DNA of 64,000 nucleotides from Burkholderiales bacterium (GTDB taxonomy: Bacteria > Pseudomonadota > Gammaproteobacteria > Burkholderiales > SG8-41), in contig DASRJL010000014.1 in assembly GCA_035649495.1 (NCBI GenBank), forward strand, positions 138-64,137, given 5' to 3'. Under the pieces are notes generated by a model. The model saw only the letters and a program-made list of their open reading frames with translations, was not told the origin of the DNA and ran no database searches. Shown here in pieces: positions 6,413 to 52,635 of the stretch (its first letter is position 1; every line of letters starts with the position of its first letter). The translations under genes and the position numbers were made by a program.

Positions 6413-6610
6413 CCCCACTAAGTATCGGACGCTGCGAAATTTCTCGTCTGAAACGACGCAATTTTTGGCCTCAGAGCGCCAGTTTTGGGGCCAGAATTGG
6501 CCGTCTTGAGTTCCGCCCAATTGAAAGCCAGATCGCTTAGAACGCCAGTTTTCCGGAAAGTCACGCTTCTGAGCGGCCAATTGCAGATCGAACTGATAAG
6601 ATAGGTTTTT

Positions 6611-6637
6611 CTTCACGAGTCACGCGTCACGGGTCAC
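6611..6637. repeat. tandem heptamer array (NNGTCAC x4)
   Basis: CTTCAC GAGTCAC GCGTCAC GGGTCAC, just upstream of the candidate selenoprotein gene. Confidence 0.6.
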
Positions 6638-6655
6638 TTTTTCTTGAGTACGCCT

Positions 6656-7426
6656 ATGGAAATCACCGCTGATAAATGGATGTACTTCACCCAGCCCGGG
6701 TGAAGCAGCTGCCTCCGAACGAAAGAGTTTCTTTCGAAAAACGGATTGGACATGGTCGTCATCGACGTCCTGAACGACGCCGGTGGCCGTGAGCTGCTGT
6801 TCGAAAAGTACGGCCTGCGCAAGGTGCCCGTCCTCGCGAAGGGTGATCGCTACGCCATGGGCCAGATGCTCGAGCCGTTCGCGAAGCTCGCCGGCATCCC
6901 GCTCGCGGCTCCCGGCGGGCTGTCACCGGAACAGCTCTACGGAAAATACGAAATGGTCTTCGCCGCCGGCCAGCGTTTCGCGCGGCAGTTTCCGGCGGAC
7001 CGAATTCTGGAACGCGTCATCCCGCACCGCGAGCGCGCGATCAGGACGCTGTGCTACCACGTGTTCCGCATCGGCGAATCGTTCCTGGAGACGTGGGACG
7101 GTGCGGAGTACGCGGCGAAGATCGCCGATGGCGAGCCGCCCGCGGCCATGAGGAGCGGAGAGGACATCGCCAACTACGGCGGCGACGTCTGGCGGCGGTA
7201 CGAAGCGTGGTGGGCAGGACTCGATGACCGCAAGCTTTCCAGGGTGCTCAAGACCTACTACGGCGATACCGTCGCTCACAAGGTTTTCGAGCGCGTCACG
7301 TGGCATTCCGCGCAGCACTGCAGGCAACTGGTGGCGGTGCTGGAGCGGATGGGGATAGAGCCCGATCGGCCGTTGACAGCCGAGGATCTCGCGGGGCTGC
7401 CGCTGCCCGAGCGGTTGTGGGAGTAA
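6656..7426 (+). CDS. candidate selenoprotein: thioredoxin-fold (glutaredoxin/ArsC-Spx-like, U-S-S-C) domain fused to a DinB-family domain
   Basis: ATG 6656 (or 6680) is in frame with TGA 6701-6703 and with track ORF 6746..7426. The junction reads WMYFTQPG-U-SSC-LRTKEFLSKNGLDMVVIDV...KVPVLAKGD, a Grx-like fold. The C-terminal half carries a DinB-like WHSAQHCRQL motif. A hairpin follows the TGA. Confidence 0.7.
6715..6744 (+). promoter_or_regulatory. putative bacterial SECIS hairpin for TGA 6701
   Basis: CGAAAG(A) at 6720-6726 pairs with (U)CUUUCG at 6730-6736. The apical loop contains G-U. A lower CCG/CGG stem lies at 6715-6717 and 6742-6744. The hairpin begins 16 nt after the TGA. Confidence 0.5.
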
Positions 7427-7439
7427 CGCCCCTACTTTG

Positions 7440-7973
7440 CTACAAATCGGTGTCCACTTTTCGTGGGTAACTCGGACGCATAACGTCCCGCATGATCCCC
7501 GCGAAGCGGTCGGTATCGATGCGGTGGTTGGAGCGCTCCCTCAAACGACTGCTGTCGGCGCACTCATCGCTTTTCTCCACCTGCACTCGTCCCGCTGACC
7601 AGTGTGTACGGCTTGGACCATCGGCATAGCCGGTCCAGTGGACACAAGCGCCGACTGCGAAATCGCGATCCGTTGAAACGACGTGTAATGTCCCATCGCC
7701 AGTGCGAATCTGGTAGACCACTCGACCGGGAGTGCGATAGAGGAATCTCGAATCTATCGTCGTCGGAGTCGCGCCGACCTGCACCGGAATTCTCGCGGGT
7801 TCGCCATCCGGCCCATAGAACGCGGGAGCAGATTCAACCACTGATCGATCTTCGATTCTTCCCACGCCCGTACCTGGATAGTCGGTCTGAAGCGGGTAGT
7901 ACGGTCCAACAGTGCAACCCGCCATGCCCATAGCAAGTACCGCGAATACCGATCGGGAAGGTCGTCGCACCAT
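7440..7973 (-). CDS. hypothetical lipoprotein
   Basis: Lipobox-like MVRRPSRSVFAVLAMGMAGC when started at ATG 7973. Lies in a lower-GC patch. No domain recognised. Confidence 0.5.
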   Translation of the reverse strand: MVRRPSRSVFAVLAMGMAGCTVGPYYPLQTDYPGTGVGRIEDRSVVESAPAFYGPDGEPARIPVQVGATPTTIDSRFLYRTPGRVVYQIRTGDGTLHVVSTDRDFAVGACVHWTGYADGPSRTHWSAGRVQVEKSDECADSSRLRERSNHRIDTDRFAGIMRDVMRPSYPRKVDTDL

Positions 7974-7995
7974 GGAGGGTCGAAGCGTAGCTTGC

Positions 7996-34178: not shown

Positions 34179-34316
34179 GCCACGGAAACACACGGACGTA
34201 CACGGAAAAAAGCAGAGCGAAGCACCGGATCGGGACATACCACCGTCCGATCGGATCATCCCGTTTCGCTCCAAATCGCAATTCTGTCCGTGTGTTTCCG
34301 TGTGATTCCGTGGCCA
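34179..34316. repeat. inverted-arm element family E (CACGGAA/ACACGGA arms), copy 1
   Basis: GCCACGGAAACACACGGACGTACACGGAA ... TTCCGTGTGATTCCGTGGCC. Confidence 0.65.
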
Positions 34317-46049: not shown

Positions 46050-47591
46050 TCAGGATCGGCCCCGGTGCTGGCGGTACGAGATCAGTTCGACGCGGCTGGC
46101 GGAGTTGATCGCGTTGCGCGCATTCCTCTTGGTGAACTCCATGGCGAGCACCCGCCGCGCCCGTTCCGGCGCGATCCAGTAGACGTATTCCCATGTGCCG
46201 CCTGTCCCCGCGACCGCACCGCGCCCTTCCACACGGTAGGCTTCGAACGTTCCCGCCGGCACCTTGATGGTTTCCTTGCCCGTTACCTTGAGAGTTATCT
46301 CCACATCGTCCTCGCGTTCCCGCGGCCACGCCGCGCGCCGCTTGTGAGTCCTGGAGTCGTTCTTTTCGAGCTGTTTGTCGCCGCGGATGATGTGAAAGCG
46401 GGTGGTCCACTTCTTGCCGATGCTGTATTCCGGAATGAAGATCTGCGACGGCGACAATTGCGTGCCGTCCCGGGCGAGCACGTCGTTGCCCAGCAGGTCG
46501 GTAATCCTGCGGCCCCTGTTGTAGATCACCTCCGTGTCCGTGATCTCCGTGACGGTTTCCGTGAATTCCCCGGCAGGATCCCGATTCAGCAGGTCCGCCC
46601 TGCTGTAGACATAGCGGTCACCGACGCTGAACGCGGTGTCGGCACGCTGCGTGCCCAGGGTGTAGGGGCGCTGCGGGGAGGCGACGACCGCCGCGACCTG
46701 CACCGGTTTCTCCCCCTGCTGCGCGAGCAGCCGATCCAGCCTGAACTGCGCAACCTCGGAAAACTTGCCGCTGGGGTAACGCCGCAGGTAGTTCTCCAGC
46801 GCCGCGATATCCTTGTCCGCGCCTATCTTCATCCACAGCGAGAGCTCATCCTCGAACTGCCGCTCGATCTCTTCGCGCGCGAGCTGGGTGCCCGCGGCCG
46901 GCGGCTGGAAATAGAAGTCCCCTTCGAGCGAGGTGCTTTCCCACGGGATCTGCTGCCCTTTCGACGCGAGGCGCACGTTCAAGCGCACGCGCTTGAACAC
47001 ATCCTCGATCTTCGCCTGCTTCACCTGGATTTCCTTGAGCAGGAATCCCGTGTAGAGGCCGTTCGCTCCCGTTCCGTCCGCTGCCACGTTCCCCGGCGCG
47101 GTCGCATAGGCGAGCAATGTGCCCGGAGGCGCATCGAGCTGGCTCAAGCCCTTCTGCTCCAAAGCCACCTGCGTCCCAAACGGATTGTCCCGGCACGCGT
47201 CCAGAATGATGATGTTCATCGCGTTGCGCGCGCGTATGAGGTCTTCCAGCAGCTGATAGACGTCGACCGCCTGCGTCTGCATCTCGGCGACGGTCCCGAT
47301 GGCGGCATCCACCGGCACGAGATAGTTGCGCCAGCCGAGTTGCGCTCCATGTCCCGCGAAATAGAACAGCCCCACCCCCTTCGACTTCGCCAGGCTCGCC
47401 CCGAAGGAATGGAACGCGTCGGTCATCTGCTTGCGGCCGGCGTCGAGTTGCAAGTCCACGGTGAAGCCCATGCGCTTCAACTGCTCGGCGATCGCGGCTG
47501 CGTCGTTGCCGGGATTCTTCAAGGGCGCTTCCTTGTAGCGGCTGTTGCCGATCACGAGGGCAACGCGCGGCAGGGCGCTGGGGGGAGACAT
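46050..47591 (-). CDS. caspase-like (peptidase C14) domain protein with a C-terminal uncharacterised domain
   Basis: RVALVIGNSRY, the His-Gly dyad YFAGHG and the catalytic Cys in ILDACRDNPF. Start taken conservatively at ATG 47591. Confidence 0.75.
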   Translation of the reverse strand: MSPPSALPRVALVIGNSRYKEAPLKNPGNDAAAIAEQLKRMGFTVDLQLDAGRKQMTDAFHSFGASLAKSKGVGLFYFAGHGAQLGWRNYLVPVDAAIGTVAEMQTQAVDVYQLLEDLIRARNAMNIIILDACRDNPFGTQVALEQKGLSQLDAPPGTLLAYATAPGNVAADGTGANGLYTGFLLKEIQVKQAKIEDVFKRVRLNVRLASKGQQIPWESTSLEGDFYFQPPAAGTQLAREEIERQFEDELSLWMKIGADKDIAALENYLRRYPSGKFSEVAQFRLDRLLAQQGEKPVQVAAVVASPQRPYTLGTQRADTAFSVGDRYVYSRADLLNRDPAGEFTETVTEITDTEVIYNRGRRITDLLGNDVLARDGTQLSPSQIFIPEYSIGKKWTTRFHIIRGDKQLEKNDSRTHKRRAAWPREREDDVEITLKVTGKETIKVPAGTFEAYRVEGRGAVAGTGGTWEYVYWIAPERARRVLAMEFTKRNARNAINSASRVELISYRQHRGRS

Positions 47592-47680
47592 CGACCGGCG
47601 CCGCCTGGAACGCCCCTCCCGGCAACGCCAGCACGCCGGCGGCCAGCAACAGCTGCAGCGCACGGCGAGCGAGGTCCCTT

Positions 47681-47701
47681 CGTGAACCGTGATCCGTGAT
47701 C
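47681..47701. repeat. tandem heptamer array (CGTGAWC)
   Basis: CGTGAAC CGTGATC CGTGATC, between the PhyH stop and the caspase-like gene start. Confidence 0.6.
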
Positions 47702-47719
47702 CGAAGCATGCGGCTCCAG

Positions 47720-48562
47720 CTACGCCGCCAGTTGAGGCTGCAGCGCGGATTCGGGCGTTCCGTCCTTCCACGGCAGCGGAACGTCGTAGTCCTTGAGCAG
47801 GCAGTCATCGGGCAGGCATTCGAGCGGCGTGAAGTCGCGATGCGCGATGTACTCGGGCCGCTTGAACCGCCGGATGTGATTCGACACGGCGCACAGGCTC
47901 AGGTACACGGCCACGCGGTTCCAGGGCGAGAGGTTGGACGTCGAGGCGTGCACCAGACACGAATGGAAGAGGATCATGGAGCCGCCCGGTCCTTTTGGCG
48001 CCACGATTCCGCCCCGCGCCACGAGCCTCGCGATCGTCTCGTGATCGATCGTCCACAACGGATAGCTGGTCGTGGTGAGGTCGTGCCCGGCGTCGAGCAC
48101 CCCCAGCTTGTGGCTCCCGGGGATGAACATGAGCGGGCCATTGAATTCGTTCACCTCGTCGAGGAAGATCGCGATGTTCATGGCGCGCGCCTCGGGCATG
48201 AGGTCGTCGTTCTTCCAGGTGCCGTAGTCCTGGTGCCACTGCCAGACGTCGCCGTCGAAAGCCATCTTGCCGTTGATCTTGAACTGGTGCATGTAGACGG
48301 CCTCGCCGAGGATCTGCACGACGGGGTCCACCATGCGCGGGTGGCGCGCGAGCCTCGCGAACGGATAGCTGTAGAGATGCGCGGCGAAGTTAGTGCGCAC
48401 CGCGTCGCTCCCCTTCTCTCGCACGTTCTCCGGCCGCTGTTGCGCGTAGAGGCGGGGCACCTCGTCGAGCAGGACCCTGGTCTCCTCCGGCCGGAACATG
48501 CCCGGGAAGAACAGGTAGCCTTCCCGTTCGAACTGATCGAGCTGCTGAGCGGTGAGTTTCAC
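47720..48562 (-). CDS. phytanoyl-CoA dioxygenase (PhyH) family protein
   Basis: GTG 48562 follows GGAGGAG. WQWHQDYG (H-x-D) motif. Confidence 0.8.
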   Translation of the reverse strand: MKLTAQQLDQFEREGYLFFPGMFRPEETRVLLDEVPRLYAQQRPENVREKGSDAVRTNFAAHLYSYPFARLARHPRMVDPVVQILGEAVYMHQFKINGKMAFDGDVWQWHQDYGTWKNDDLMPEARAMNIAIFLDEVNEFNGPLMFIPGSHKLGVLDAGHDLTTTSYPLWTIDHETIARLVARGGIVAPKGPGGSMILFHSCLVHASTSNLSPWNRVAVYLSLCAVSNHIRRFKRPEYIAHRDFTPLECLPDDCLLKDYDVPLPWKDGTPESALQPQLAA

Positions 48563-48628
48563 GGCTCCTCCATGCGAAATCCGCCGGCGCTCAAGCTGCC
48601 CCGGCCGCTGCGGGATATCATAGTGGAA

Positions 48629-49312
48629 ATGGACTATGAAATCAGGCTGTACATGGACCAGCTGGCGCCGCAGGCAGTCGTGCAGATGCCGCTGCACTCC
48701 GCTCCGGTGCGGGCGATCTACGTGATTTCCGGCGGCCTACGGCTGGGCTCCGGCGGGGCCACGGCTACGCTCGGCGCCAACAGCGCCTGGCACAACCGCG
48801 GCGCCGTGCGCGCCGGGGCCGGACATCTCACGACCCTCGCGTTGCGCTGGGAGCTTGCTGGCCCCGGGGAGCCGGATGCTCCCCTCGCGGGAGATGGCGT
48901 GACGAGCACGCGCCTGCTCTCGGCGAGGCTGGCGCTCGATCCCGCTCAACCGTACCTGTTGCGCTGCGATCGCGTGGATTTTCCGCCCGGCGGCGAGGCG
49001 CTCCTGCACACGCATGCAGGCGGCGGCATACGCTGCCTGCTCTTCGGCGCCATCGAAATCGAGACGAAAGGCAAGCGCACCCCGTACGGGCCGCTCGCGT
49101 CCTGGTTCGAGGCCGGACCCGATCCCGTTTACGCCGCCGCCTCGAAGACCGAGCCGACCGCTTTCGCCCGGGTCATGATCCTGCCGCGCTCTTTGCTCGG
49201 GAAATCGTCCATCGCTTACGTCAACGCCGAGGACGTCGCGAAGCCCAGGAGCCAGCAGTATCAGGTGTTCATTGATGTCGCGGTTGAGCTTCCGCCCAAC
49301 CCAAACGAGTGA
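48629..49312 (+). CDS. cupin-domain protein
   Basis: Real part of track ORF 47696..49312, starting at MDYEIRLY. FPPGGEALLHTHAGGGIRCLLFG is a cupin motif. Confidence 0.65.
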   Translation: MDYEIRLYMDQLAPQAVVQMPLHSAPVRAIYVISGGLRLGSGGATATLGANSAWHNRGAVRAGAGHLTTLALRWELAGPGEPDAPLAGDGVTSTRLLSARLALDPAQPYLLRCDRVDFPPGGEALLHTHAGGGIRCLLFGAIEIETKGKRTPYGPLASWFEAGPDPVYAAASKTEPTAFARVMILPRSLLGKSSIAYVNAEDVAKPRSQQYQVFIDVAVELPPNPNE

Positions 49313-49425
49313 TGAGTACTGGTGATGAATACTGGTGATGGCAACTGGTGATGAAAAGGCGCGCTACTCGTACATCACCATTTTTCATCACTATTTCTCA
49401 TCACCATCTTTCATCACCATTTTTC
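49309..49425. repeat. hairpin with 13-nt periodic arms
   Basis: Left arm is (G)GTGATGNNNACT x4, right arm is CATCAC(C/T)ATNTNT x4. GGTGATG/CATCACC stems alternate with mismatched 6-mers. The array begins at the TGA of 48629..49312. Confidence 0.7.
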
Positions 49426-49476
49426 CCTGCTGCTGCCTGAGGTATAGTTGCAGTCAGATCGACTGAGGAGTCAGCA

Positions 49477-50010
49477 ATGGTAATGCTGTACGACCCGACG
49501 GCGCCGCGGCGCGAGGGCGGCGACACGGGAGAGCGCAAGACGCTCGCTGGGCTGAAAGGCGCGGTGGTCGGGTTCATCGACAACGCCAAGCCCAATTTCA
49601 ACCACCTGGTGGACGATCTCGCCGAATTGCTCGAAAGCCGCTACGGCGTGCGCGCGGTCGTGAAGCGCCGCAAGCGTTCCGCGTCGGTGCCGGCGCCCGA
49701 GGAGATGCTCCGGGAAGTCGCCAGTCAGTGCGACCTGGTGATCACCGGCTCGGGCGACTGAGGATCCTGCTCGTCGTGGAGTGTCCACGACAGTGTAGAA
49801 GCTGCGAAGCAGGGACGCGCCGCCGTGGCAATCTGCTCGACCGCCTTTCTCACGCTCGGCCGCGCGCAGGCGCGGGCACTGGGCAATCCCGACCTGCCGA
49901 TCGCGGTTATCCCGCATCCGTTCGGCGTGCGCTCGCGCGAGGAAGTGCGGCAGATGGCGGAGAAGTGCGTGGACGACATCGCGAAGCTCGTTGCATACCA
50001 GGAACCCTAG
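49477..50010 (+). CDS. UGSC-family selenoprotein (TGA 49759-49761 read as selenocysteine)
   Basis: GAGGAG RBS. Track ORFs 49477..49761 and 49825..50010 share one frame and are separated only by this TGA. The junction reads VITGSGD-U-GSC-SSW. A hairpin follows the TGA. Confidence 0.8.
49768..49795 (+). promoter_or_regulatory. putative bacterial SECIS hairpin for TGA 49759
   Basis: GUCGUGG at 49773-49779 pairs with CCACGAC at 49785-49791. Apical loop is AGUGU. The stem extends through CU/AG with a bulged C at 49772. Confidence 0.55.
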
Positions 50011-50148
50011 CCACGGAATCACACGGACACACGGAAGTGATTTGCTCTGGGGCGCTTTTCATGATGGCAGGACGCTTGCATGTACGTTCTGTCGATGTCG
50101 TCTCTATGGTGCTATTTTCGTCCGTGTAATTCCGTGTGTGTCCGTGGC
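50010..50148. repeat. inverted-arm element family E, copy 2
   Basis: GCCACGGAATCACACGGACACACGGAA ... TTCCGTGTGTGTCCGTGGC. Same arm vocabulary as 34179..34316 with a different core. Confidence 0.65.
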
Positions 50149-50152
50149 TGAA

Positions 50153-51211
50153 ATGGACTTTGACATGAACCCTGTACCAGCCGCGGCGACGTTCGAAGCG
50201 CCCGACGATCTCGAGGAAATCAACCGCCTCTACCGCGAGCGCAAGTGGGGTGACGGGCTGCCGATCGTGCCGCCTACCGTGGAGCGCGTCGAGCGCATGC
50301 TGCGGCACACGCAGCGCGACCGCCACGAAGTCGTCGCGCGGGTCGCGCCCGGCTTCGGGGAGGCGACGGTAGAGCGCATCGCGATCAACGCCGTCATGGC
50401 GGGCTGCGACCCGGAGTACCTGCCCGTCCTGATCGCCGCCACCGGGGCGGTCGCGTCGCCCGAGTTCAACCTCCAGGGAATACAGGCGACGACCAATTCG
50501 GTCGCCGTGTGGGTGATCGTCAGCGGGCCGCTGGCGAAGACATTGGAGGTCAACGCCGCTTTCAACTGCCTCGGCCAGGGCTGGTGGGCGAACGGCACCA
50601 TAGGGCGCGGGCTGCGGCTGATACTGCAGAACGTCGGCGGCGCGCTGCCGGGCGAGATGGACCGCGCGACCCACGGCCAGCCGGGGAAGTACTCGTTCTG
50701 CTGCGGCGAGAACGAGGAGGCGAGCCCGTGGGACCCGCTCAACGTGGAGCGCGGCCACGCGCGCGGCGCGAGCACCGTCACGGTGGTGGGCGCCGAGGGC
50801 ACCATGAACATGAACACGCACACCAAGGAGGCGCCGGAGCTGATCCGCGCGTTCGCCGAGACGATGCAGCATCCGCCGAGCAACGAGTACACGCACGGCG
50901 GCGAGCCATGGCTCATCCTGAGCCCGGAGCACGCCGACATCTTTCACCGCGCCGGATGGGGGAAGAGCGAAGTGAAGCGCCGGCTGTGGGAGGCCTCGAA
51001 GATGCCCGCGCGCAGGATGACGGCGAAGGACTTGCTGCGGGTGCACGATTCGCACGGATTGAAGCCGGGGCAGTTGAAGCCCGACGACCTGCTCGCGATT
51101 TCCGAAACGCCCGAGGACATCTGGCTGCTGGTGGCCGGCGGGCCGGGGACGCACTCGGTTTACGTGCCGTGCTTCGGCAACTCGCGAGCCGTTACCCGTG
51201 CCATCCAGTAA
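50153..51211 (+). CDS. conserved-looking uncharacterised protein (352 aa)
   Basis: Real part of track ORF 49991..51211, starting at MDFDMNPV. Clean coding composition. No family recognised. Confidence 0.7.
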   Translation: MDFDMNPVPAAATFEAPDDLEEINRLYRERKWGDGLPIVPPTVERVERMLRHTQRDRHEVVARVAPGFGEATVERIAINAVMAGCDPEYLPVLIAATGAVASPEFNLQGIQATTNSVAVWVIVSGPLAKTLEVNAAFNCLGQGWWANGTIGRGLRLILQNVGGALPGEMDRATHGQPGKYSFCCGENEEASPWDPLNVERGHARGASTVTVVGAEGTMNMNTHTKEAPELIRAFAETMQHPPSNEYTHGGEPWLILSPEHADIFHRAGWGKSEVKRRLWEASKMPARRMTAKDLLRVHDSHGLKPGQLKPDDLLAISETPEDIWLLVAGGPGTHSVYVPCFGNSRAVTRAIQ

Positions 51212-51235
51212 AGCCTCATGCCCTCGGTGCGCGGT

Positions 51236-51338
51236 TTTGCCGCAGAAAATCGAGCTCTAGGCGTAAAAACAGAGCGTTTTACAGAACTAAACATCAATTA
51301 ATCAGGCACTTCCTGGGGTCAGACCCCGGGAAGTGATT
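51236..51338. repeat. element family D (TTGCCGCAGAAAA ... AAACATCAATTA ... GGGGTCAGACCCC), copy 1
   Basis: Ends in the 29-nt near-perfect palindrome CACTTCCTGGGGTCAGACCCCGGGAAGTG (51307-51335), between convergent genes. Confidence 0.55.
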
Positions 51339-51339
51339 G

Positions 51340-52635
51340 TCAGGGCATGTCCTTGTCGGTGTAGACCAACGACACCCGCGCTTCCTCCGGCACGGGCGGC
51401 ATCGTCGTGCTCCACTCGGCATACCGGGCACGCAGCGCGGCGAGCCGGTCGGGGTGGCGCCGCGCGAGGTTGGCGCGCTCGCGCTCGTCCGCCTCGAGAT
51501 CGAAGAGATACTCGTTCGCGCCGATCGCGAGGTATTTCCAGCGACCTTCGCGCAGCGCGCGCTGATCGCGGTGCTTCATGCGCCAGAAGAGGGCCCGGTC
51601 GCTGCACGCGACCGGATCGCGCAGCACCGGAACGAGGGACATTCCGTCAAGGGGATGGTCCGCGTGCGCGGGCACGCTCGCCGCGGCGAGGAACGTCGCG
51701 ACCCAGTCCATCGTGATCGCGAGTTGCGACGTGACGCCGCCCGCCCCGACCACGCGCGGCCAGTGCGCGATGTACGGCACGCGGATGCCGCCCTCGGTCA
51801 GGTCCATCTTGCCGCCGACGAGCGGCCAGTTGTCCGAGAAGCGCTCGCCGCCGTTGTCGCTGGTGAACACGATCAGCGTGTCCTCGAGCAGCCCCCCCGC
51901 CTCCAGCGCCGCGGCGACCCCGCCGATCCCCTCGTCCATGTGATGGATCATCCGCTGGTAGACGCGGATCGAGCCACCGTCGAGATGGGCGATGTTCCCC
52001 TTGAGCCCGGCGGCGACCCCGGCGTCGTCGCGCGTCTCCCACGGCCAGTGCGGCGCGGTGTAGTGCAGGCTAAGCAGGAACGGCCGGCGGTCCGCGGCGC
52101 GCCGCCGCACGAAGTCCACGGCTCGCTGCGACAGCAGGTCCGTGAGGTAGCCCTCGGCGCGTGCGGGCTCGCCGTTCTCGTAGAGATCGCCCCGGCCCTC
52201 GCGGTCGGTGTGGGTGAAGTAGTCGACGCCGCCCGACACCGGCCCGAAGTGCTCCTCGTAGCCGCTCTTCAGCGGACCGAAGTGCGGCGGAAAGCCGAGG
52301 TGCCACTTGCCAACGAGCGCCGTGCGGTAGCCCGCGTCGCGCAGCAGCGATGGCAGCGTCGGATGCGCGGGCGGTAACCCGATCTCCGGGTGGCCGCGTG
52401 CCCGTCCGGACATCGGCTCCTCGGCAGCGCCGCGCAGCCGGTACTGGTAGCGCCCGGTAATCAGAGCGAACCGGGTCGGCGAGCACACCGGCGCGTTGGC
52501 GTAGCCCTGCGTGAAGCGCAGCCCGCGCGCGGCCAGGCGGTCGAGGTGGGGCGACACCGGCGCGCGGCCGCCGTAGCATCCGAGGTCCGCGTAACCCAGG
52601 TCGTCGGCGAGGATAAAGACGAAGTTCGTCGGCAC
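51340..52635 (-). CDS. arylsulfatase (Cys-type, formylglycine-dependent)
   Basis: FVFILADDLGYADLGCYG and the C-S-P-T-R formylglycine motif (VCSPTRFALITGR). Start set to GTG 52635 and is uncertain. Confidence 0.85.
   Translation of the reverse strand: MPTNFVFILADDLGYADLGCYGGRAPVSPHLDRLAARGLRFTQGYANAPVCSPTRFALITGRYQYRLRGAAEEPMSGRARGHPEIGLPPAHPTLPSLLRDAGYRTALVGKWHLGFPPHFGPLKSGYEEHFGPVSGGVDYFTHTDREGRGDLYENGEPARAEGYLTDLLSQRAVDFVRRRAADRRPFLLSLHYTAPHWPWETRDDAGVAAGLKGNIAHLDGGSIRVYQRMIHHMDEGIGGVAAALEAGGLLEDTLIVFTSDNGGERFSDNWPLVGGKMDLTEGGIRVPYIAHWPRVVGAGGVTSQLAITMDWVATFLAAASVPAHADHPLDGMSLVPVLRDPVACSDRALFWRMKHRDQRALREGRWKYLAIGANEYLFDLEADERERANLARRHPDRLAALRARYAEWSTTMPPVPEEARVSLVYTDKDMP

Follow-up and report, generated by a model that had tools for sequence, protein, structure and literature searches.

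A UGSC-family gene with an in-frame UGA in a Burkholderiales bacterium: a probable selenoprotein encoded beside a constant partner

Positions 49477-50010 of the 64,000-nucleotide stretch of Burkholderiales DNA analysed here (the window) are best explained as a single gene that encodes a UGSC-family selenoprotein of 177 residues and whose UGA at codon 95 is very probably read as selenocysteine (Sec). Public gene callers, of course, do not see it that way; they split the gene into two fragments, with open reading frames of 94 and 61 amino acids. ENA assemblies ERZ27257732 and ERZ27257649 contain the identical sequence. The original prediction had joined the open reading frames 49477..49761 and 49825..50010 into one, and every coordinate in that proposal proved correct. 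The frame starts with the ATG at 49477-49479, crosses the TGA at 49759-49761, and stays open to the TAG at 50008-50010; around the TGA it translates as CDLVITGSGD*GSCSSWSVHD, the asterisk being the TGA itself. The Shine-Dalgarno-like GAGGAG ahead of the ATG is present as described. These features are collected in Table 1.

Table 1. Coordinates of the UGSC gene, its signals, and associated features of the window
Feature	Position	Strand	Remarks
UGSC-family selenoprotein gene (best explanation)	49477..50010	+	177 codons plus TAG; Sec is codon 95
GAGGAG, Shine-Dalgarno-like	49465..49470	+	6 nt ahead of the ATG; read from the sequence
UGA Sec codon	49759..49761	+	motif G-S-G-D-U-G-S-C
SECIS-type hairpin, 9 bp	49772..49793	+	starts 11 nt after the UGA; GUG loop 49781-49783
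MITE/REP-like insertion	50009..50149		terminal inverted repeats 50009-50036 and 50120-50149
Partner gene, about 348 aa	50165..51211	+	start as in public assemblies (gene call from L088)
Grx-DinB selenoprotein candidate	6656-7426	+	TGA 6701-6703

UGSC entered the catalogue of selenoprotein families in 2007-2008, when it was presented as a Sec protein having a UxxC motif and few Cys homologs (Zhang and Gladyshev; PMC1976440, PMC2398784). In GOS, 255 Sec forms were counted against 21 Cys forms, and the family was commonest in non-marine samples (PMC1976440, PMC2398784). Reviews of 2022 and 2026 list its function as unknown (PMC9312934, PMC13188914). Two curated profiles place the window gene in this family, as had been predicted. 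With U written as C, the read-through protein scores 132.8 bits against the NCBIfam model NF041046, “UGSC family (seleno)protein” (curated cut-off 125), and 176.1 bits against the Pfam model PF24696, “UGSC” (cut-off 25). The first alignment crosses the TGA junction, carrying residues 28-171 onto profile positions 2-145 of 147; the second carries residues 4-172 onto positions 2-170 of 172. The U/C-G-S-C motif stands where it is expected, after the strand D-x-V-I-x-G-x-G-D, and reads GSGD-U-GSC in the window. The gene is an expected member of a well-known family that has its own annotation model. What goes beyond the catalogue is confined to the constant adjacency of a partner gene, a flavodoxin-like fold, and, in one clade, linkage to selA-selB-TrxR-like-selC.

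Protein databases give, at first sight, a discouraging picture of the homologs. A search over 5.8 billion proteins returned 645 matches, and the close ones are nearly all of 97-100 amino acids, cover 53% of the query, and have GSGD as their last residues. Endings of this kind arise when gene callers take a conserved UGA for a stop. At the level of DNA, a scan of 185,579 species genomes found 80 loci, nearly all in Burkholderiales or in Betaproteobacteria MAGs, and TGA occupies the codon that matches codon 95 in every one of them, followed by an open, conserved frame. Neither TGC nor TGT was found at this codon among the 80 loci of this clade. The question raised with the prediction, whether homologs terminate at this position, is therefore answered in the negative.

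Selection continues past the TGA. Relative to the window, the median dN/dS is 0.187 for the 62 upstream codons and 0.193 for the 72 downstream ones, and none of 75 downstream segments contains a stop or an indel. The near equality of these values on the two sides, together with the intact frames, shows that the C-terminal half is translated.

More distant relatives show what the TGA stands for. A HMMER search of 1.84 billion cluster representatives, with P0001 as the query, found 1,230 members of the UGSC family. The U column was counted in an alignment of the best 149 of these plus the query, of which 136 have a residue there: 128 Cys, 5 Ser, 2 Gly, and 1 His. The other 14 are fragments that stop after GSGD. 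The motif columns read C-G-x-C in 128 of the 136 full-length representatives, and P0001, itself a full-length relative, has GMGD-C-GGC at the position of the TGA. CGSC copies of the Cys type occur in cultured Natrinema (an archaeon) and Variovorax, and further Cys-type copies in culturable Paracoccus; Paracoccus versutus and Variovorax SRS16 have natural Cys-type pairs of UGSC and its partner. Homologs in which Cys aligns with Sec, for which the prediction had asked, are thus abundant: Cys in 128 of 136 distant relatives, TGA in 80 of 80 closer loci.

A cultured host also carries the Sec form. In Acidovorax sp. T1 (L092), UGSC and its partner lie at 6437-7990 of plasmid p2-T1 (NZ_CP021650), where the UGSC gene has the TGA and the same SECIS core as the window gene. 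The plasmid is conjugative and of the IncP type, and the UGSC copy adjoins transposases. Only a hypothetical fragment of 97 amino acids is annotated for UGSC in this record, and the PLSDB gene table for p2-T1, which is incomplete, has no feature over the partner gene.

Behind the TGA, the synonymous sites mark out a hairpin. SelB-dependent SECIS elements begin their stem about 11 nt past the UGA and carry a G-U in the apical loop. At codons +4 to +10 after the TGA, the synonymous entropy among 75 distinct orthologs is 0 bits, the codons being NCG TCG TGG AGT RTC CAC GAC with one CAT as the sole exception; conserved residues elsewhere in the gene have about 1-1.8 bits. This block coincides exactly with the hairpin of Table 1, whose sequence may be written C-GUCGUGGA-GUR-UCCACGAC-(A)-G. 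Its pairs are C49772-G49793 and, past a bulged A49792, eight contiguous pairs joining G49773-A49780 with U49784-C49791. Across 75 sequences, 99.9% of the cells in these nine pairs are paired, as against 11-56% in slid controls. The GUG loop lies 20 nt from the UGA. This geometry, that is, the 11-nt offset and the GU loop, matches that of established SelB-dependent elements and suggests that 49772-49793 acts as a bacterial SECIS.

The hairpin of the original prediction is therefore real and does lie downstream of the TGA, with a correction at its base. Conservation in orthologs does not extend to the two lowest pairs as first drawn (C49770-G49793 and U49771-A49792, C49772 being bulged), and the lower-stem pairs given by ViennaRNA were rejected on the same alignment. 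The stretch 49768-49797 folds at -14.3 kcal/mol (z = -3.5; none of 200 shuffles as stable). An 81-nt context gives z = -0.22 and is like its shuffles, in a sequence that is 64% GC, as is the window overall; a fold of that length is uninformative in GC-rich DNA, and the 30-nt hairpin was used instead, together with the comparative data. No SECIS family of Rfam was found in the whole window at the gathering threshold, nor in 49650-49900 at a permissive E-value.

Because the core stem is invariant among orthologs, it shows no covariation among them, and such support as covariation gives comes from a few divergent paralogs. These are Sec-type UGSC genes, all with TGA, that precede the main UGSC gene by 3-7 kb in seven loci (L012, L020, L057, L062, L063, L074, L076). 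Their motifs read GMGC-U-GSC, AIAD-U-GSC, or AVGD-U-GSC, and each has a hairpin of its own after the TGA, at the same offset but with a different sequence, and always with GU in a loop about 20 nt from the UGA. The L020 paralog has the stem GUCGUGC/GCACGAC, a compensatory double change from G-C to C-G, and the L076 paralog keeps one pair by going from U-A to U-G. In the five GMGC-U-GSC paralogs, the stem is an unrelated one, GCCCGC/GCGGGC.

Reading UGA as Sec requires, of course, an apparatus. In the window, ARAGORN found no tRNA genes at all, and tblastn found no match to the SelA, SelB, or SelD of E. coli; SelD also had no match in any related locus. With neither sel genes nor tRNA-Sec in the available 64 kb, Sec decoding in this organism has to be inferred, and one argument for it is that the window holds two intact Sec-type genes under selection. 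The other is the gene at 6656, likewise predicted and likewise found, with its TGA and hairpin conserved in orthologs. Its product has a glutaredoxin domain (45 bits) with the motif G-U-S-S-C, fused to a DinB_2-like domain. Orthologs in L002, L014, and L031 keep the TGA and, 16 nt after it, the hairpin CGAAAGA-GUU-UCUUUCG. An altered genetic code was ruled out for the window, since TGA is the ordinary stop of five of the eight other genes that were checked (PrpD-like, caspase-domain, sulfatase, FAA hydrolase, and ABC substrate-binding).

Relatives of the locus do carry parts of the apparatus. In 12 related loci (L008, L009, L011, L014, L016, L019, L024, L031, L036, L037, L070, L077), a tRNA-Sec gene with anticodon TCA directly follows the partner gene. 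In all 12, a gene for a TrxR-like flavoprotein comes after it on the minus strand, between selC and selB, and selB and selA come next wherever the contig reaches far enough. In this conserved selenium island, TctC-UGSC-partner converges on selA-selB-(TrxR-like flavoprotein)-tRNA-Sec on the opposite strand. L014 (8986-16039) is an example, and here Pfam confirmed the assignments, with wing domains in SelB and 520 bits for SelA. In L014, the Grx-DinB selenoprotein gene is near selA, and mnmA is nearby as well.

The partner gene accompanies UGSC throughout. In all 78 loci that offer enough sequence, it is the very next gene on the same strand, as a rule after a gap of 0-40 nt; L076 has the two fused in frame, and all 17 UGSC representatives of 485-567 amino acids are natural fusions of the two. 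These fusions correspond to “UGSC/Unknown_1,” a fusion to an unknown domain recorded in 2008 (PMC2398784). Over 5,000 proteins belong to the partner family, every one labelled “hypothetical.” The partner has two conserved cysteines, Cys88 and Cys186. No match to the partner was found in Pfam or NCBIfam, or among PDB sequences by phmmer or profile. Its AlphaFold2 model is a confident one (pLDDT 90.8, pTM 0.90), and a Foldseek search with it against the PDB gave no significant match (best E = 0.02, TM < 0.2). This best match, to “Toblerone-fold” cyclic amide hydrolases (probability 0.25), was rejected. Two other starts are possible, GTG 50144 and ATG 50153; an exact protein look-up from the GTG found no match, because public calls start at ATG 50165.

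The spacer between the two genes is about 0-40 nt in most loci and 100-240 nt in the closest relatives of the window, where the window itself has its spacer filled by the MITE/REP-like insertion. The element is dispersed, about 130 nt long, with the core CACGGAATCACACGGA. A second copy lies at 34181-34300 of the window and others in L001, L003, L004, L016, and L024, the core recurring as inverted pairs. A promoter and terminator scan of 48600-51500 gave nothing above expectation. Upstream of UGSC, the intergenic region 49309-49437, which separates it from a cupin-like gene (48572-49312), is a long imperfect inverted array of about four tandem 13-nt units of the GGTGATGA type followed by four to five tandem reverse-complement units (CATCACCATTTTT); similar arrays occur in other contexts, in L026 and L030. 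Farther upstream, on the minus strand, a 573-aa open reading frame with a caspase (Peptidase_C14) domain (46050-47771) adjoins a gene for a PhyH-family dioxygenase (called 47720-48562).

Beyond the partner, other neighbors recur. In 38 of 67 loci, a gene for a TctC-type solute receptor lies on the same strand and ends less than 400 nt ahead of UGSC. Annotated records near UGSC include genes of the isocitrate-lyase/PEP-mutase family and for a CoA-transferase, a hydratase, and an amidohydrolase, and trxB lies near the Variovorax copy.

The fold of UGSC was taken from an AlphaFold2 model of a homolog, the natural fusion P0226 (pLDDT 92.8, pTM 0.93), rather than of the window protein; a search of PDB sequences with the UGSC profile found no solved relative. 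The UGSC domain of this model is a parallel sheet of beta-alpha repeats, in which the CGSC motif (residues 98-101) falls between a strand (90-96) and a helix (99-114). Its best matches in the PDB are lumazine synthase, PurE, and flavodoxin-like domains, all weak (target TM 0.4-0.58). A thioredoxin-like fold was suggested for UGSC in 2008 (PMC2398784). No thioredoxin or glutaredoxin entry is among the top 50 PDB matches of the model and, as far as weak matches to a modelled homolog can tell, the domain does not belong to the thioredoxin fold; it would be, rather, a flavodoxin-like alpha/beta/alpha sandwich.

What, then, might the TGA be if not a Sec codon? It might be a true stop, leaving two small proteins of 94 and 61 amino acids, or else a pseudogene of a Cys-type UGSC made by a change of TGC to TGA or by sequencing error. 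The public annotation has exactly these two fragments, and the 64 kb hold no Sec machinery. Against this stand a TGA shared by 80 of 80 independent genomes in a clade that offers no TGC or TGT, 72 downstream codons that lack stops and indels and evolve with the dN/dS of those upstream, a single HMM alignment that spans the junction, and a conserved hairpin behind the TGA; together, these leave a true stop with next to no probability. A subtler possibility is that the UGA is read through by other means, either by a near-cognate Trp or Cys tRNA after loss of the Sec pathway or through a reassignment of UGA in this lineage. It draws on the same missing machinery and on the failure to find selD in any locus. 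However, UGA remains a normal stop in five of the eight other window genes checked, relatives align Cys, the usual counterpart of Sec, with the UGA, and the hairpin has the position and the GU loop expected for SelB binding. Further, tRNA-Sec, selB, and selA adjoin the ortholog in 12 relatives, and the second gene in the window with TGA at a Cys position also keeps a hairpin. Read-through that inserts something other than Sec is therefore very improbable, and decoding of the UGA as Sec is by far the better reading.

If Sec is inserted, its task can be viewed in two ways. In one, Sec acts as a catalytic nucleophile and occupies a “nucleophile elbow” (strand-turn-helix, G-D-U-G-S), as in amidotransferase or hydrolase folds that depend on cysteine; catalysis would then fall to UGSC and substrate binding to the partner. 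The motif does have, in the model, a beta-strand on one side and a helix N-terminus on the other; a glutaminase domain, MccF, and caspase, all users of such elbows, are among the weak fold matches; and amidohydrolase genes lie near some UGSC copies. Those matches, however, have a target TM of at most 0.58, TrxR-like genes recur nearby, and the Cys at +3 is conserved to nearly the same degree as the U/C position, as would suit a redox center of two residues. An elbow is thus unlikely, and the likely role of UGSC is that of a U-x-x-C redox subunit acting with its partner.

A mechanism can be proposed on this basis. SelB/SECIS recoding is established for fdhF of E. coli. In the same manner, the hairpin at 49772-49793 would recruit the SelB.GTP.Sec-tRNASec complex to the ribosome, so that the UGA at codon 95 is recoded. 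In the protein, Sec95 and Cys98 may form a redox-active selenenylsulfide at the N-terminus of the helix, as the model and the motif suggest. UGSC would then work as a subunit with the product of 50165-51211; their association is observed, while a physical complex between them is inferred. The pair might carry out a thiol- or selenol-dependent step on an imported carboxylate, and a TrxR-like enzyme might re-reduce UGSC. Both of these last steps are speculative, and both were proposed because TctC-type receptors, genes of organic-acid and CoA metabolism, and TrxR-like flavoproteins are recurrent neighbors.

Taken jointly, these steps would make UGSC and its partner the two subunits of one selenoenzyme, which is re-reduced by a TrxR-like enzyme, acts on a carboxylate imported through TctC-type transporters, and anchors the Sec trait. 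As a whole, this reading is tentative and more likely to fail in some part than to hold in all. Were it true, the large subunit would have a fold with no solved counterpart, and a TrxR-like flavoprotein would be dedicated to UGSC and its partner. UGSC would also be the “anchor” selenoprotein to which freshwater and soil betaproteobacteria owe the survival of their Sec trait, a view that comes from the joining of its operon to selA-selB-TrxR-like-selC in one clade of Burkholderiales.

Some consequences are more immediate. Positions 49477-50010 should be annotated as one selenoprotein gene of 177 codons, in place of the two “hypothetical” fragments that are called in public assemblies, that of the plasmid of the cultured Acidovorax sp. 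T1 included. UGSC is, moreover, among the most abundant prokaryotic selenoprotein families of non-marine waters. With its strict pairing with the partner, its fusions in nature, its Cys forms in Paracoccus, Variovorax, and haloarchaea, and its TrxR-like and TctC neighbors, it offers a defined pair of proteins that can be expressed and assayed.

How does this gene compare with systems already known? Within its own family, it is an ordinary member, having the same domain at full length and the same U-G-S-C, and differing in nothing essential. The family is one in which Sec forms far exceed Cys forms and which is typical of non-marine aquatic and soil bacteria. Like the Trx/Grx-fold UxxC proteins, of which the Grx-DinB product is one, UGSC has a U-x-x-C at the N-terminus of a helix, Cys homologs, and a SECIS-type hairpin; unlike them, it shows no thioredoxin fold when its domain is modelled.

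With the SECIS of fdhF in E. coli, the window hairpin shares a place within the coding sequence about 11 nt after the UGA, an apical G-U, and one bulge, and relatives of the window locus encode, as in the fdhF system, a SelB with winged-helix domains. The differences are in detail. The two stems are unrelated in sequence; where the fdhF hairpin has a bulged U on its 5' side, that of the window has a bulged A on its 3' side. The loop of the window hairpin has 3 nt, or 5 nt if the closing A-U pair opens. Further, the window hairpin is recognized by no Rfam model, and SelB binding here is putative.

A last comparison, by analogy only, is with GrdA, GrdB, and PrdB, small UxxC/CxxU selenoproteins that serve as subunits in multi-protein reductases. 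The UGSC protein has no similarity to these in sequence or in fold, as judged by Pfam, NCBIfam, and PDB searches, and its partner is unrelated to any characterized subunit. Their hosts are Stickland fermenters, whereas the hosts of UGSC here are aerobic Burkholderiales. The arrangement is nevertheless the same, in that a small Sec-x-x-Cys protein is encoded beside a larger subunit that is not a selenoprotein. By this analogy, UGSC probably joins that subunit in metabolizing small carboxylates or amino acids.
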